This document shows positions 1-24,147 of a stretch of 28,614 nt of DNA, piece by piece (position 1 is the first letter of the stretch; each line of letters opens with the position of its first letter). The position numbers were made by a program, and so were the translations under genes. Source of the stretch: Candidatus Bathyarchaeota archaeon (GTDB lineage Archaea > Thermoproteota > Bathyarchaeia > Bathyarchaeales > Bathycorpusculaceae); assembly GCA_030672945.1 (NCBI GenBank), contig DAOVFL010000001.1, forward strand, positions 1 to 28,614, in the 5' to 3' direction. Under the pieces are notes generated by a model. The model had not been told where the DNA came from. It made no database searches and was given only the letters and a program-made list of their open reading frames with translations.

Positions 1-298
1 GGTAGATTATTCTGACCTTCCCTATAGTATCCGCCTCTTCAACAGTTTTATCGTCTCTTATACGGTTTATTCTGGCAAAACGCAGAGCCATACCGCACTT
101 GTATTTTGAGCTTTCTTGGATCTCATTATATAATACCTCGACAACTATTTTAGGAACTACAATAACCCTTCTACCTTCCTCTTTTATGGTCAATTCTTTA
201 AGCCGCTTAGTCATTTCAATGATCTCTACATCCGTCAACCCCTTGAAGGTTTTACCAACCATCATATACCTTCTTTTTTCAACATCACGAGCAGCTAA
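1..298 (-). pseudogene. lig: Out-of-frame C-terminal OB-fold of the same DNA ligase, open to the window edge
   Basis: Manual translation from 298 down: LAARDVEKRRYMMVGKTFKGLTDVEIIEMTKRLKELTIKEEGRRVIVVPKIVVEVLYNEIQESSKYKCGMALRFARINRIRDDKTVEEADTIGKVRIIY. It has no stops and contains motif VI (RFARINRIRDDK). Not in the ORF track. Confidence 0.9.
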
Positions 299-1686
299 GT
301 AATAATATCACTACCACACTTGGCTTTCAGATAATAATCTGAAAGCCATTCATGCCTTCGACCATAACCATATTCAGCTGCAACAATAACCAAATCCAAG
401 GGTTCAAGAACGGGTTTTATCTTAAGCCAACGTTTTCCACGAATCCCAGGCGTGTATTCACTGTCAAGTTTCTTAGCCACCAATCCTTCATGACCAGCAT
501 CTATTGCCTCTTCCAGAAACCTTTCAGCCCCTTCAACTCTATCTGTAACCAATTGTTCTGGCAACGATATTCCCTCAGCATTTTCAACTAAGATTTTTCT
601 TCGCTGTGTATATGGAAATGAAACTAGGCTTTCTCCGTCAATGTAAAGTATGTCAAACAGATAAAGCTCAACAGGTATCTTTTCAATTATGGCTTCTATG
701 TTGTGAACCCTTTTGAATCTACGCATCAAATGTTGGAATGGAATAGGATGACCCTGGATGTCAACGGCAATAACCTCACCCTCCAAAATCGCCTTTTCCA
801 CCTTCACGTTCTTTCGAACAATTTCAACGATTTCCGGCAGACCCACTGTCACATCTGTCAGTCTTCTACTAAAAATCCTCACCTCATCACCACATTTGTG
901 AATTTGAACCCTTGCACCATCCAGTTTATACTCGAAAGCTGTTTCGCCACCATGCTCCTTCAAGGCTTCAGCAACATCACTTGCCGTCTGAGCCAACATA
1001 AGCCCAACAGGTCTAAGAACCCCAAACCCAACCTTCAATAAGGCATCTTCACCCTGCCTTTTTGCTATGGCAGCAACCTCTCCCACATTACCCAATGTCA
1101 TAGTTGCCTTCTGAACCGTTTCCAATGGAATCTGGAAAGCTTTGGAAACCGCCTGCTCCATCAAGCCTTCGTAAAAACCAGTTCTCATCTCACCTATCAA
1201 TATCTTAACTAGAAATTTCGCTTCAAGCGGTGACGCTAGACTTAAAAGGGTTGCTATGAGCCGTTCTTTCTTCACCCTTGAGCCCGACCCAACGGTTTCA
1301 GTTACAGCCTTAAAACTGTGCTTAACCTCCAGTATCGTCATTTTTCTCTCAAAAAGTGTTGACTGCTTGCCAACTTTGCTGATCTCAAAGAGTATTTTTG
1401 TTGCTGAGCCTACATCGCCAGTTTTTCCAAATGCTTCTGTGAAGGCTTTCCAGTCGGTCTTTGTTATGCGTTTTACTATTTCGCTAAGGGTTGCCCAGCT
1501 CACATCAAGGGTTTGTTGACTCCATTTTGGGAAAGGTCTTCCAAGAACCATGGATACAGCTGGTTCAACTTCTTCCACTTCTAAATCATTTAGGAAATCT
1601 GCAACGAAGCTTACCATAAGAAGCCGTTTGTTTGTTGTTTCAAGTTTTTCGCAAAGTTCCGCCAAAGCTTTGAAGGGTGTAGGCAT
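295..1686 (-). CDS. lig: ATP-dependent DNA ligase, N-terminal part (DNA-binding and adenylation domains), ended prematurely by a 32-nt insertion
   Basis: Motif I EYKLDGAR with catalytic Lys, ILEGEVIA, LYLFDILY, HEGLVAK, motif V RWLKIK. The ORF ends ..WLSDYY then LKAKCGSDIIT*, which derives from the insertion. Confidence 0.95.
   Translation of the reverse strand: MPTPFKALAELCEKLETTNKRLLMVSFVADFLNDLEVEEVEPAVSMVLGRPFPKWSQQTLDVSWATLSEIVKRITKTDWKAFTEAFGKTGDVGSATKILFEISKVGKQSTLFERKMTILEVKHSFKAVTETVGSGSRVKKERLIATLLSLASPLEAKFLVKILIGEMRTGFYEGLMEQAVSKAFQIPLETVQKATMTLGNVGEVAAIAKRQGEDALLKVGFGVLRPVGLMLAQTASDVAEALKEHGGETAFEYKLDGARVQIHKCGDEVRIFSRRLTDVTVGLPEIVEIVRKNVKVEKAILEGEVIAVDIQGHPIPFQHLMRRFKRVHNIEAIIEKIPVELYLFDILYIDGESLVSFPYTQRRKILVENAEGISLPEQLVTDRVEGAERFLEEAIDAGHEGLVAKKLDSEYTPGIRGKRWLKIKPVLEPLDLVIVAAEYGYGRRHEWLSDYYLKAKCGSDIIT
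300..348. repeat. 7-bp direct repeat (taataat at 300-306 and 332-338) plus a perfect 12-bp inverted repeat (321-332/337-348) marking the insertion in lig
   Basis: tggctttcagat-aata-atctgaaagcca. Deleting 32 nt between the direct repeats restores SDYYLAARD. Confidence 0.9.
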
Positions 1687-2318: not shown

Positions 2319-3047
2319 GTGAAAATTTGTGATGTTCATGTTCATTTAGGAAAATCGGGACCATGGCAACCGTACGTGAAACCATCAATGTACGTGGATA
2401 AGCTCATACACTTATTTAAAAAATACAATGTTGAACGAGCTGTCGTTTTCCCAAATCCAAATGTTGGCGACAAATACCCCAAAATGAACGATTACATTGC
2501 AGACTGCGTAAAGAAGCATCCAAACCGCCTAATTGGTTTTGGACGGGTAGATCCGAGAAGAGAAGACGCTGCGGAAGAGTTGAATCGCATAAAAAACAGT
2601 TTAGGCTTAGCCGGGCTTAAATTGCATCCGATGGTGGAGTGTTTCAGACCAGATCATCCCTTCTTTGAAAAGTTCTTTGAAAAAATTAATGAACTGAAAC
2701 TTCCAGTGCTCTTTCACACGGGAACTGGATTTTCCTCACCAGGGTTAATCCTAAAAATCGCTAAGAAACATCCGAAGTTACCAATAATTTTAGGTCATTT
2801 AAGAGAAGCCGCCGTTAACGCTTTAGGAATGGCTGAGAACATTTATGTTGAAACTTCTGGCACTTTACCAGAGTTCATCGAGCTTTCAGTGGACATAGAT
2901 GAAGACAGAGTATTATTCGGCTCTGATGTTCCATATTACCGTTATCCCGTCCAGATAGCAATTGTGAAGGCAGCGGAAATCTCTCGAAAGGCGAAAAGAA
3001 AAATCTTCTACGAAAACTTTCAAAATCTGTTTATTAAAAAAGAATAA
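2319..3047 (+). CDS. Metal-dependent amidohydrolase (Amidohydro_2 TIM barrel)
   Basis: DVHVH, GLKLHP, VLFHTG, ILGH and VLFGSDVP give a complete metal-ligand set. GTG start after a purine-rich RBS. Confidence 0.9.
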   Translation: MKICDVHVHLGKSGPWQPYVKPSMYVDKLIHLFKKYNVERAVVFPNPNVGDKYPKMNDYIADCVKKHPNRLIGFGRVDPRREDAAEELNRIKNSLGLAGLKLHPMVECFRPDHPFFEKFFEKINELKLPVLFHTGTGFSSPGLILKIAKKHPKLPIILGHLREAAVNALGMAENIYVETSGTLPEFIELSVDIDEDRVLFGSDVPYYRYPVQIAIVKAAEISRKAKRKIFYENFQNLFIKKE

Positions 3048-3080: not shown

Positions 3081-4481
3081 ATGTCACTTAAATGTATTCA
3101 ATGCGGTTCAAAATCTCCACCTTATCCGCCAAAAAGCATGTGTGAAAAATGCGGAGGAATATTGGAATATGAGATTATTCTACAAAATAAACATAAGATC
3201 AAGTTTTCTGGCAAGCTTCGTTTTTGGAGGTATAGGGCGTTACTTCCTCCTGTAAGTAATATTATGAGTTTAGGTGAAGGTGGAACACGTCTACATAAGG
3301 CTAAGAGGCTTGCCAAAAAAGTTGGGTTGAATGATCTTTATCTAAAGGACGAAACCAGAAACCCAACCAACTCTTTTAGAGATCGTGCAGCAGCACTTCT
3401 AACTACAAATGCAATAGATCTTAAACATGACACATTAATCTGTGCAACCAACGGAAACCTAGGTGCTTCCTTAGCTGCCTATTCTGCAAAGGCTGGGTTA
3501 ATCTGTAATGTAATTGTTCCCAAACTTGTTGACGTTGGAAAACTGGCTCAAATGCTCGTCTACGACGCTGCCATTGAAGAGTTCGGAGTAACAGTCGACG
3601 ACTCCATAATCAGAGCTGAAGCTTTAGCCAAAGAAACTGGCTGGTATCAAGCAACCGCAGAGCTAAATCCGCTTGTAATTGAAGCACAGAAAACAATTTC
3701 CTATGAAGTCTATGAGCAGTTTGGTGTTCCAGACTGGCTTATAGTTTCCATGGGAGGAGGCGGAACCATATACTCAATATGGAAAGGCTTCAAAGAACTT
3801 GAACAGCTCGGAATAACGAATTCCATGCCAAGAATGATCGGAGTCCAACCTAAGGGATGCGCCCCCATAACTAGAACATTACTGGAAGGTCATTTCCAAC
3901 CATTAAAAATTTCGAAGCCATCTACCCGTGCACTGGCTGTACTAGTAGCTCACCCTCTTCAAGGCGAACTAGCTATAAAGGCGATAAAAGAATCAGACGG
4001 CTTGACTTTAACAGTTTCCGACTCTAAGATCTTCACAGCAGAACTTCAGATAGCTAAACTCGAAGGAATATTCGCTGAACCAGCAAGCTCTGCCACAATA
4101 GCAGCACTAAAAAAGCTTATCAAAGAAGAGCAAATCAGCAAAAATGAAAGTGTTGTATGCCTCATCACTGGAAGCGGACTTAAAGCCACAAATGTACTAC
4201 AAGCATTAACCAAAAAACAGAAGACAGCTGTTCTAGGCTTAGACATAAGCACAAAAGAAAAAATACTTCGAATCTTAAGCATAAAAGACACATACGGGTA
4301 TAACGCGTGGAAAAAACTGGGAAAAGTTATAACAAGAGCGGCCATATACCAACACCTAAACGAGCTCTCAGAAAAAGGACTAGTAGTAGGCTACGGAAAA
4401 AATGGAAAAAAATTCTTCAAAATAACAGAACGCGGTAAGAAAGTTCTACGTGCAATTGATGATATAAAACTTCTACTTTAA
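3081..4481 (+). CDS. Threonine-synthase-like fold-type II protein with Lys-to-Arg at the PLP site, fused to a C-terminal PadR-like winged HTH
   Basis: N-terminal CxxC..CxxC, SLGEGGT, NPTNSFRDR (canonical NPTGSFKDR), TNGNLG, SMGGGGT, EPASSA, TGSGLK. Residues ~391-466 read YGY..TRAAIYQHLNELSEKGL..FKITERG. Confidence 0.9.
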   Translation: MSLKCIQCGSKSPPYPPKSMCEKCGGILEYEIILQNKHKIKFSGKLRFWRYRALLPPVSNIMSLGEGGTRLHKAKRLAKKVGLNDLYLKDETRNPTNSFRDRAAALLTTNAIDLKHDTLICATNGNLGASLAAYSAKAGLICNVIVPKLVDVGKLAQMLVYDAAIEEFGVTVDDSIIRAEALAKETGWYQATAELNPLVIEAQKTISYEVYEQFGVPDWLIVSMGGGGTIYSIWKGFKELEQLGITNSMPRMIGVQPKGCAPITRTLLEGHFQPLKISKPSTRALAVLVAHPLQGELAIKAIKESDGLTLTVSDSKIFTAELQIAKLEGIFAEPASSATIAALKKLIKEEQISKNESVVCLITGSGLKATNVLQALTKKQKTAVLGLDISTKEKILRILSIKDTYGYNAWKKLGKVITRAAIYQHLNELSEKGLVVGYGKNGKKFFKITERGKKVLRAIDDIKLLL

Positions 4482-4492
4482 CCGGAAATGCT

Positions 4493-4522
4493 TAATTAGT
4501 ATAGTTACAACTATACTAATTA
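4493..4522. promoter_or_regulatory. Perfect 30-bp palindrome, candidate operator upstream of the ECF S-component gene
   Basis: taattagtatagtt-ac-aactatactaatta: two 14-bp arms with a 2-bp spacer, ending 8 nt before the ATG at 4531. Confidence 0.7.
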
Positions 4523-4530
4523 GATTTGAA

Positions 4531-5277
4531 ATGACCAGAGAAAAAGAAATATCTCCTTTCAACTTGGCGATTACGGCTGTCTTCACTGCACTCGTTTGTG
4601 TCGCAACAATGACGTTTTCCATTAATGTTCCTGCGACACGAGGTTTCTTCAATATAGGTGAATCGATGGTTTTTCTCTCCGCCCTCCTTTTCGGGCCTTT
4701 CGTTGGAGCTTTCGCCGGAGGAATAGGCTCCATGCTGGCTGATCTGCTGTTAGGCTTCCCGCATTATGCACCGGCTACGCTTATCATCAAGGCTTGTGAA
4801 GGCGCCTTCGTAGGAGCACTTAAGAAAAGAAATCCAAGGTTCAGTTCCAAACTTGAATGGAAATTCTTCACGCTGATCTTAGGTGTTGTTGCTGGTTTCT
4901 TACTGGGTTGGGTTGGCATGTCTTACTATAGTGGTGATGTAGAACTCAGCTTGGGTTCAAGTTCATTCATGTTCTATCTTCCAGCAGAGTTCTGGTTATT
5001 TCTCGGAGTCATAACTTCTCTGTCCATAATATTCTTAGGCTTCTTAGCTGATCCAGAGTTCGGTTGGACAGTTTTCTCAGTGATCACCGGTGGTTTCATC
5101 ATGGTTTTAGGATACTTCCTATACCAACAGTTCTTCATAGGCCCACTTTTCAACATTGAAGCTGTAGCCATAGCAGAAATACCAATAAATATCGGACAAA
5201 TGATTATAGGTGCAACAGTGGCATTACCAATAGCCAAAATAATTTGGCGAGCGCTCCCATACCTGAAAAAGAAATAA
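4531..5277 (+). CDS. ECF transporter S-component (HmpT/PdxU2/DUF1393-like) with an internal hydrophobic insertion
   Basis: AxxxA in TM1 (AVFTA), GFFNIGE, GPFVGAFAGGIGSMLADLLLG, YAPATLIIK..EG, NIGQMIIG. Polytopic, 248 aa. Confidence 0.85.
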   Translation: MTREKEISPFNLAITAVFTALVCVATMTFSINVPATRGFFNIGESMVFLSALLFGPFVGAFAGGIGSMLADLLLGFPHYAPATLIIKACEGAFVGALKKRNPRFSSKLEWKFFTLILGVVAGFLLGWVGMSYYSGDVELSLGSSSFMFYLPAEFWLFLGVITSLSIIFLGFLADPEFGWTVFSVITGGFIMVLGYFLYQQFFIGPLFNIEAVAIAEIPINIGQMIIGATVALPIAKIIWRALPYLKKK

Positions 5278-5301: not shown

Positions 5302-6351
5302 ATGAGAGGGACAAATAGTTTGCATCTTCCTTTTGGAAAAATTCCCATAGACATTCTTCAGGAAGTTGTTTTCAAAAATCTGGGTGCGAAACGCACAGAA
5401 GTTGTTTTAGGTCCTGCCGCTGGGTTTGATGGCGCCGTCATAGACGTTGGAGATAAATCCATAATAGTTTCTACGGATCCTATTACTGGTGCAACAGAGC
5501 GAATTGGTTGGCTCGCCGTAAACATTAACGCAAATGATGTTGCCACATTCGGTGTTGAACCAGCATTCTTCTTATCATCCATCTTACTTCCTGAAAATGC
5601 AGATAAGAATACCGTTGAAACGATATGTATTCAAATGGATAAGTCTTCAAGAGATTTAGGGATGGCTATTGTTGGAGGACATTGCGAAGTAACTCCCAAA
5701 CTGACCAATCCAATAATTGTAGGCTGTGCTATGGGCATAACAGAAAAAGGAAACTACGTAACAGCGGGTGGAGCTAGGATTGGAGACAAGCTTATATTGA
5801 CCAAGAGTGCAGGAATCGAAGGCACAGCAATTCTGGCAGTGGATAGAGAAAAGCAATTGAAGAAAGCATTAAGTTCCACTATACTACGGAATGCCAAGAA
5901 ATTCTATGACCAAATAAGCGTGGTCAAAGATGCATCTGAAGCCATCCAAACACAAGGAGTTAATGCTATGCATGATCCAACAGAAGGCGGTGTGACCGGA
6001 GGAATCCATGAAATGGCAGATGCATCAAATCTAGGTGTAAAAATCATCGAGAAAGAAATTTCAATCCAACCAGAAACAGTTAAAATCTGCGAATTCTTTA
6101 AAATCGACCCACTACAACTAATAAGTTCTGGAGCCTTACTGATTTCCGCCAAACCAAACCTCGCAAACAAGGTAGTCAGAAGGTTAGAGCAATCCCACAT
6201 TCATGCCTCTATCATTGGGGAATTCGTGGAAAACCCGCAAGATCGCCTATTAGTAAAGGAAAATGGACGTATTCAAACCTTGCCAAGACCTGTTTCCGAC
6301 CATCTTTGGCTTATCATTCAAAGAGAGAAGGATTATTGGAAAAATGTGTGA
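5302..6351 (+). CDS. AIR-synthase (PurM/HypE/ThiL/SelD) superfamily protein
   Basis: GFDGAV, STDP, NINANDVAT, VGGHCE, GDKLILTK, AMHDPTEGG, SSGALL. Exact substrate is not assignable. Confidence 0.85.
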   Translation: MRGTNSLHLPFGKIPIDILQEVVFKNLGAKRTEVVLGPAAGFDGAVIDVGDKSIIVSTDPITGATERIGWLAVNINANDVATFGVEPAFFLSSILLPENADKNTVETICIQMDKSSRDLGMAIVGGHCEVTPKLTNPIIVGCAMGITEKGNYVTAGGARIGDKLILTKSAGIEGTAILAVDREKQLKKALSSTILRNAKKFYDQISVVKDASEAIQTQGVNAMHDPTEGGVTGGIHEMADASNLGVKIIEKEISIQPETVKICEFFKIDPLQLISSGALLISAKPNLANKVVRRLEQSHIHASIIGEFVENPQDRLLVKENGRIQTLPRPVSDHLWLIIQREKDYWKNV

Positions 6352-22136: not shown

Positions 22137-22744
22137 TTAAGTTATGAAGACGTTGCAGAAGGTGGGGGAGGAGGTGGCGGAGGTTGTAGGGGTGCCGACG
22201 ACGACTTCAATGAGAGATAAAAGTGCACAGCCGCCAACTGTGAAAATGACATTTAGAATCCAGCTTATCACAGTCCCAATATATGCACCGACAACTGGAA
22301 TAAATGCGAAACCAATTCCAAGGATTAACGAAACAACGATCACAATGATTATGAAGATAATAACTTCTCCCGAATTTTTGACAATAAAGTTAAACGATCT
22401 GTTTGTGCTCTCGATGGCATCTGTTCCCTCTATTAGGGCAGTGGTAATGATGAATAGAGCAACAGGAATTAATACAAATGTGATAAAGCACACATCTGAA
22501 ACAATGGCCGCTAGAATCAAAGTGCCTAATCTACTAGTGACAAGACTCACACTTTTCTTCATGTTCATGGGGTGTTCATTGATTATGTCGTTAGCCATAT
22601 CGACAATCATGCAGCTAGCTATAAATCCAATGATGGATGCCATAAAATGACCTAGCTAAACTATCCAAGGATTAGGGTATGCAACCTCGTAAAATCTTAG
22701 GTTTATCCAATCTCATACCATCCCTCTAATAGGGAAGACCACAT
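22137..22744 (-). pseudogene. Decayed polytopic membrane protein with a proline-rich tail
   Basis: In-frame TAG at 22656-22658 just upstream of MASIIG. One extra G near 22234-22235 shifts the end away from TVAAVHFYLSLKSSSAPLQPPPPPPPPSATSS*. The 5' end appears broken across several frames. Confidence 0.6.
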
Positions 22745-23506: not shown

Positions 23507-23851
23507 CTATGGTGGAGGTGGTACACTACTTTCCGTTTCTTCTTCAAAGCGCAACTTGATTCCACCGATCCTTGGAGCAAGAAAGTTGTAAATCACTGCG
23601 ATAATCAACCCTTGTATGAGCCCTCCTATGAATCCCATTATTGGAAATAGTATGATTGACCCTAAGCCAAACAACATACCGAAACCAGTTAAGTCTACAC
23701 CGTTTGGCACTTGACCGACTATAGACATGATACTAGCCCAAAAAAAAATAGCCATTATGATACCAGCTATAAATCCTATTACTGCATTAATTGCTCCCAT
23801 CATCATTGCGAACGGCATTGCCGGTACGTTTCTTATTGTTCTTTCTTCCAC
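23507..23851 (-). CDS. Small membrane protein (DUF3566-like) with a PPPP tail
   Basis: Hydrophobic helices, GFIGGLI..YN..A..IGGIKL. Likely GTG start MEERTIRNV at 23851. A T-rich tract follows the stop. Confidence 0.65.
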   Translation of the reverse strand: MEERTIRNVPAMPFAMMMGAINAVIGFIAGIIMAIFFWASIMSIVGQVPNGVDLTGFGMLFGLGSIILFPIMGFIGGLIQGLIIAVIYNFLAPRIGGIKLRFEEETESSVPPPP

Positions 23852-24147
23852 ATAGACACATCCAATACTTTTCGTTTTTGTTAGTTGGAAACAGTGATCA
23901 TGTAAAGCTTTCCAGCCATTAACGTTCGGACCGCGTATAACTAAAATACTAAGGGATGTAGTAGGAGTGACATGACAAGGATAATAATCGAATCTTTCAC
24001 GCTGCATGGCTTTACACATGCACTAATGATCATGTACATTGAAGCGAGATTGAAATACTATCTTATTATCAAACCAGCGTGGCAAGGATTAGAAATATTA
24101 GCAACTTCTGTGCTTACCTAATATTCAAACCTTTAGGAAGCAGTAAA

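Follow-up and report, generated by a model that had tools for sequence, protein, structure and literature searches.

The locus analyzed here raises the question of whether a gene named threonine synthase in databases encodes an enzyme or a regulator and, in the latter case, what the protein senses and which genes it controls. The gene is located in a window of 28,614 nt (the whole stretch of DNA analyzed) from Candidatus Bathyarchaeota archaeon, contig DAOVFL010000001.1. The original prediction was that its product consists of a threonine synthase (ThrC)-like protein with a PadR-like winged helix-turn-helix (wHTH) domain fused to its C-terminus. Our analyses point to a candidate repressor that would act as a dimer on the uptake and synthesis of vitamin B6 and would bind a B6 phosphate non-covalently, a reading to which we assign a probability of about 0.8. 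Annotated wrongly as threonine synthase, it apparently represents a family of B6-responsive repressors in archaea that has not been described before. The features of the locus are collected in Table 1.

Table 1. Features of the regulator locus, numbered from the first nucleotide of the window.
Feature	Positions	Strand	Basis
Regulator: zinc ribbon, ThrC-like pseudo-enzyme domain and PadR-type wHTH	3081-4481	+	PRK05638-like family; ORF, Pfam, homologues, model
N-terminal zinc ribbon, CxxC-x12-CxxC (C5, C8, C21, C24)	3093-3152	+	Cys conservation
PALP fold-type II domain, candidate B6-phosphate sensor; N126, Gly loop 225-227, E333 and T363 kept	3267-4172	+	Pfam PALP, Foldseek, column counts
Arg100 (AGA) replacing the ThrC Schiff-base Lys; NPTNSFRDR vs NPTGSFKDR	3378-3380	+	Alignment to Aquifex ThrC 2zsj
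PadR-type wHTH; recognition helix TRAAIYQH at 4332-4355	4251-4481	+	Pfam, alignments, full-length model
Predicted promoter element of the ECF S gene, directly adjoining the operator: BRE-like (CGGAAA) plus AT-rich, TATA-like sequence	4483-4498	+	Cross-locus base composition
Candidate operator TAGTATAGTT-AC-AACTATACTA; perfect 14-bp arms 4493-4506 / 4509-4522	4497-4518		Repeat, cross-locus conservation, matrix
ECF S component, HmpT/PdxU2-like, first predicted target	4531-5277	+	PF07155; sole solved relative 4HZU_S
AIR-synthase/HypE/ThiL-fold protein, second gene, co-oriented	5302-6351	+	Pfam/NCBIfam matches; neighbourhood

ORF 3081-4481 (+) encodes 466 amino acids in a single frame lacking internal stop codons, and the peptide in which the wHTH had been recognized corresponds to residues 391-456 of this uninterrupted frame. 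The possibility that two genes were joined by a lost stop codon is excluded, because all of the 120 closest homologues carry the fusion: they are 464-493 residues long and contain both PF00291 and PF03551. These best 120 homologues are 72-100% identical to the regulator, the named ones all belonging to Bathyarchaeia, and remoter full-length members are present in Desulfurococcales, Thermococcales (Pyrococcus and Thermococcus) and Odinarchaeia. The fusion is thus genuine, ancient and widely distributed, and databases know it only under an enzyme name. In Thermococcales (L177-L179, L240-L242), the regulator gene is consistently located 3' of genes for a proteasome subunit and an aCPSF1-type nuclease, with no adjoining transporter gene.

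The C-terminal sequence had been described as a PadR/ArsR-type pattern, of which the PadR part was borne out by an HMM scan: positions 4251-4478 taken alone match Pfam PadR (PF03551) with 35.1 bits (E = 1.3e-8; gathering score 27), the match in the full-length protein spanning residues 395-457, whereas the ArsR and HTH_20 matches to this tail are weak and under cut-off. The nearest solved relatives of the domain are the PadR proteins 9qbc (E = 0.0012) and AphA (1yg2, E = 0.02). A wHTH fold is also predicted in the AlphaFold model of the full-length protein, in which three helices (the third spanning residues 419-431) are followed by a beta-hairpin wing (435-448) and a C-terminal helix, at pLDDT values of 80-93; folding the wHTH alone from its single sequence gave a poor model. 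Residues Q424 and H425, at the end of the recognition helix, are invariant family-wide.

The full-length model, built with 91 sequences (mean pLDDT 89.6, pTM 0.85), consists of a ThrC body, a linker (residues 376-388, low confidence) and the winged helix. Pfam PALP matches residues 63-364 (E = 1.7e-72), and threonine synthases rank first when the model is used as Foldseek query (ThrC 6nmx: E = 6e-31, TM 0.86 by target, 36% identity). The zinc-ribbon cysteines are near-invariant among the 120 homologues, and C5, C8 and C24 are invariant in the wide alignment of 91 sequences. Two copies modelled together with PLP gave a homodimer score of 0.86 (best control 0.00), which scores the interface and leaves the ligand unscored; 20 of 30 solved homodimers and one of 23 monomers pass the mark set for this score. 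Contacts agreed between runs by at least 48%, with pLDDT of at least 86, and the interface runs through the PALP domain, the confident contacts including no wHTH residues. The score probably reflects likeness to solved ThrC dimers.

The architecture had not been recognized as that of a characterized regulator. This holds for the literature insofar as our searches, whose coverage leaves out most subscription papers, found no description of the fusion family, but not for the databases, as NCBIfam PRK05638 (NF004170), named "threonine synthase", already models the whole architecture. This model of 442 positions matches residues 3-458, including the wHTH (E = 3.9e-113); its score of 378 bits is under the curated cut-off of 421, and it is still the best-scoring family with full-length coverage. 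The enzyme implied by its name is contradicted by the active site: the PRK05638 members retrieved have an Arg at the position of the catalytic Lys.

A true or bifunctional threonine synthase with an accessory wHTH, as the annotation has it, would agree with the ThrC fold, with a TIGR00260 thrC match of 211 bits (cut-off 167) and with the presence of a canonical thrC gene adjoining the regulator in some genomes, but the Schiff-base Lys is missing from 162 of the 169 wHTH-bearing members. Among these 169, the position is occupied by R in 146, by L in seven and by K in seven, followed by M and Y, and it is R in 120 of the 120 close homologues. The ThrC loop STGNT reads TNGNL in the regulator, and the substrate-site Arg (NPxR) is gone; the Thr residues of this loop and the NPxR Arg are substrate-site residues in Thermus threonine synthase. 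At the positions of T124, T127 and R199, the fusions have N/D, M/L and S/V/A/G/T, respectively (N124, L127 and V199 in the regulator studied here). The same genomes encode Lys-bearing, wHTH-less ThrC-like proteins elsewhere, the Lys being present in all 24 intact wHTH-less paralogues, 22 of them with T124/T127/R199. Moreover, the predicted targets include no threonine genes. The seven fusions that do carry a Lys form one clade (support 1.0) nested among those with Arg and are likewise devoid of the other ThrC residues, which suggests that their Lys is a reversion. We consider it very improbable that the protein is a threonine synthase.

Column counts over the 169 wHTH-bearing members support the preferred reading of a B6-phosphate sensor, since N126, E333 and G227 are found in all of them and T363 in 162. 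The equivalents of N126, G227, E333 and T363 hold the ring and phosphate of PLP in fold-type II enzymes. Judged by its sequence, the ThrC-derived domain looks catalytically dead, and a cofactor pocket that is kept while the catalytic residues are stripped is what would be expected of a sensor binding B6 phosphate non-covalently. Arg100 may, however, block PLP binding rather than permit it. The clade of Lys-bearing fusions (L069, L070, L073-L075, L077 and L079), in which the non-ThrC substrate site is kept and several loci have a TATTATAG-type operator, possibly senses PLP covalently and would then form a natural comparison pair with the Arg members.

At six loci (L137, L138, L139, L213, L215 and L216, in G014, G044, G056, G417, G378 and G369), a canonical Lys-bearing thrC is divergent to the regulator gene or a few kb away, which may be a relic of the ancestral duplication. 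Between the two genes in L137-L139, no operator was detected with a loose core pattern. The PALP tree leaves the monophyly of the wHTH-bearing members unsettled because its outgroup branch is long.

The inverted repeat to which the original prediction tied the regulator starts eleven bases past the regulator stop codon and has a 2-bp spacer between its arms, and our follow-up upheld this tie. Allowing up to four mismatches, its 22-bp core, TAGTATAGTT-N2-AACTATACTA, recurs no more than 260 nt past the 3' end of the regulator gene at 74 of 79 loci (0-1 mismatch in 50), and in the window it ends 12 nt ahead of the following start codon. In the 850-kb genome of this archaeon, it has the top matrix score (36.7 bits; next best 12.4), with only two other positions at 8 bits or more, and no second convincing site was found by matrix scan of this 72% complete genome. 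Across loci, the sequence relative to the operator is A-rich at -12 to -9 and T/A-rich at -7 to -1, which we interpret as a probable BRE plus TATA box. A dimer bound to the operator would span the region between the TATA-like box and the start site, which would be a repressing position. At one locus, L098 (G108:C69:15177), a good copy of the motif precedes a radical-SAM-like gene instead of a B6 gene, and is either an extra regulon member or due to chance.

Alternatively, the palindrome could form a hairpin in RNA or be bound by another factor, with the fusion protein acting on other targets. The stretch does fold as RNA (-13.5 kcal/mol, z -4.6), and in principle the adjoining gene and the motif could belong to different factors. 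Among 43 distinct sites, though, departures from the consensus break a pair 51 times, against seven compensatory changes and nine G-U pairs, and a second, overlapping copy lies 17 nt away in 20 loci. We reject an RNA hairpin on the strength of these pair-breaking departures and overlapping copies, which argue that the operator acts as DNA. The spacer is always 2 nt, most of the site probably precedes the transcription start, and the occurrence of the site tracks that of the regulator across pdxS promoters (see below). Taken in both its forms, we regard this alternative as improbable and treat the palindrome as the candidate operator of the regulator.

An ECF S gene is present near the regulator in 74 of 80 loci, and an AIR-synthase-fold gene is found within 5 kb in 62 of 80. 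S-component genes unlinked from the regulator are still preceded by the operator, often with an amidohydrolase gene behind them, and in distant Thermoproteota, related palindromes sharing the AGTT-N2-AACT core are located ahead of S-component genes (6-10 bits in G250, G170 and G198). The sole solved relative of the S component is 4HZU_S (HmpT/PdxU2), a protein from which pyridoxamine was extracted (PMC4860826). Four of the six named HmpT pocket residues (E41, H84, Q87, Y120, N140 and Q143) are matched, by E44, Y195, N220 and Q223; H84 and Q87 are replaced by K87 and E90, which are invariant in 55 neighbours. That just four of the six match counts against the B6 reading. The S component has 248 residues, compared with 166 in HmpT, and contains a hydrophobic insertion (approximately 105-180) that is missing from some relatives.

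The amidohydrolases that follow the S component behind operators (L088, L092-L097, L046 and L059) belong to one Amidohydro_2-like subfamily, the members compared being 50-70% identical to each other, and are candidate enzymes of B6 salvage or degradation. An Amidohydro_2 gene (2319-3047, +) is also located directly upstream of the regulator gene, without an operator, a position shared only by L001 and L060. Its membership of the module is unsupported, as it neighbours the regulator in only two of 80 loci, is not preceded by an operator and shares just 27-30% identity with the subfamily behind operators elsewhere. Elsewhere in the window, the DNA ligase ORF 295-1686 (-) ends abruptly after 463 residues (564 in the L001 orthologue), possibly because the C-terminal domain is truncated or because of a frameshift or an error in the assembly, and two ORFs of about 170 residues each (22137-22643 and 23507-24019, both -) have no Pfam matches.

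Genes for B6 synthesis allowed the B6 link to be examined. A weight matrix trained on transporter sites alone, for which the background is about two positions of at least 8 bits per 850 kb, was applied to the upstream regions (300 nt) of 29 pdxS genes from Bathyarchaeia. A site scoring 8.5-24.9 bits is located directly before the pdxS start in all seven genomes with a close regulator (58-72% identity), whereas the other 22 upstream regions score -6.5 or lower. The comparison is not an independent statistical test, because the seven positives come from three genera of two families and the negatives from other families. The PdxS of one positive genome, G282, falls in a distant PdxS lineage, and its sister G007 has neither regulator nor site, which points to a separate recruitment. 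Another family contains six genomes in which pdxS is head-to-head with the gene for a distant full-length member. The intergenic regions of these divergons (L217, L228, L229, L231, L233 and L234) contain an ATATATG-N9-CATATAT-like palindrome, which the matrix did not score, and their regulators have a longer wHTH and L or M at the Lys position. Given the operator before both transporter and pdxS, together with this divergent clade, uptake and synthesis, two unrelated B6 functions, appear to share the regulator.

The same regulator and operator could respond to an effector unrelated to B6, such as the thiamine precursor HMP-phosphate, or the old substrate pocket could accommodate an amino acid or a phospho-amino acid. 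Hydroxymethylpyrimidine was the substrate to which HmpT was initially assigned (PMC4860826), the downstream gene has a ThiL-like fold, an amidohydrolase whose substrate is not assigned belongs to the regulon in some genomes, and the substrate-site residue K154 is retained. Weighing against such an effector are the motif before pdxS in all seven of these regulator-bearing genomes, the divergent regulator-pdxS arrangement in a separate clade, and the retention of the PLP pocket with loss of the ThrC substrate residues. Such an effector is therefore unlikely in our view, and a B6 phosphate remains the preferred ligand. The different motif of the divergent-pdxS clade and the housekeeping context of the Thermococcales gene also count against the B6 reading.

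Only 33 of the 351 genomes of the class contain pdxS, the present one (72% complete) showing none, and PdxK was found above cut-off in none of 61 relatives; the weak PdxK matches, mostly frames of about 460 residues, were taken as ThiD-like. Most of these archaea would therefore depend on salvage, which makes the co-oriented gene with an ATP-binding fold a candidate B6 kinase. Alternative B6 kinases are still to be found (PMC9997740). That the AIR-synthase/ThiL-fold protein is such a non-orthologous kinase is speculative, and we propose it only tentatively. Equally tentative is the wider idea of a B6 salvage module new to archaea and encoded in full by this locus, in which a Lys-less fold-type II sensor would read free B6 phosphates non-covalently and repress an HmpT-like transporter together with the AIR-synthase/ThiL-fold gene, whose product would be the missing B6 kinase where PdxST and PdxK are both absent.

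In the mechanism that we propose, the ThrC-derived domain would have lost catalysis and form a ThrC-type dimer, which would most likely bind a phosphorylated B6 vitamer non-covalently, either PLP or one of PMP and PNP, for which a Schiff base is not required. The 22-bp palindrome, which begins where the TATA box ends on its 3' side, would be contacted by the pair of PadR-type wHTH domains, and the bound dimer would block TBP, TFB or RNA polymerase. When B6 is plentiful, uptake (the S component and the gene behind it) and, where present, pdxST would be switched off. Binding of the protein to the site and to a B6 vitamer is inferred, as are the direction of control and a ligand that promotes rather than releases binding. 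The liganded form would thus occupy the operator and keep transcription of uptake, salvage and synthesis genes from starting, and this co-repression was chosen because the site lies downstream of the TATA box of supply genes. The original idea of an enzyme-fold sensor with a C-terminal wHTH is upheld, and sharpened to an N-terminal domain without catalytic Lys and to predicted vitamin B6 gene targets.

The regulator shares with ThrC (6nmx, 2zsj and 1uim) the fold, the predicted dimer face and the Asn, Gly loop, Glu and Thr of the PLP pocket, but differs in the Lys-to-Arg and STGNT-to-TNGNL changes, the lost substrate-site Arg and the added wHTH. With PadR regulators (9qbc and AphA), it shares the sequence pattern and topology of the wHTH. 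PadR proteins dimerize and bind ligand via their own terminal helices, whereas in the regulator both the predicted dimer face and the pocket come from an enzyme fold of 370 residues. ThiR is an archaeal one-component factor with a vitamin-pathway enzyme fold as sensor and vitamin genes as targets; its vitamin and fold are others than those of the regulator. Another such archaeal factor, RbkR, remains an active kinase, and its sites are located upstream of promoter elements, suggesting activation (PMC5397151). RbkR also resembles the regulator in using a vitamin-pathway enzyme fold as sensor and vitamin synthesis and uptake genes as targets, but vitamin and fold differ and the site here is downstream of the TATA box.

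In Bacteria, the PdxR proteins of the MocR/GabR subfamily likewise join a wHTH to a sensor derived from a PLP enzyme. MocR proteins combine an N-terminal GntR wHTH with a fold-type I aminotransferase domain, mostly activate pdxST and are stated to be absent from Archaea; the PdxR regulon comprises pdxST, salvage and pdxU transport genes (PMC5320631). The regulon predicted here by comparative genomics, pdxST and B6 transport genes, is similar, but in this protein the ThrC domain is of fold-type II and has lost the Schiff-base Lys, the wHTH is of the PadR type and C-terminal, and the operator is placed where it would allow repression. It is thus predicted to be PdxR-like in action and is unrelated in architecture, MocR membership failing on both domains.

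We found no described archaeal regulator of vitamin B6 genes in the literature. If our reading is true, the family fills the gap left by the absence of MocR/PdxR across several archaeal lineages, and its sensor fold is new among the PLP regulators that we found described. It would also put right the "threonine synthase" annotation, which is widespread and can lead metabolic reconstructions astray, and the regulon points to candidate B6 salvage enzymes. Orthologues are encoded by Pyrococcus and Thermococcus, both of which are in culture, and a defined 22-mer makes up the operator.
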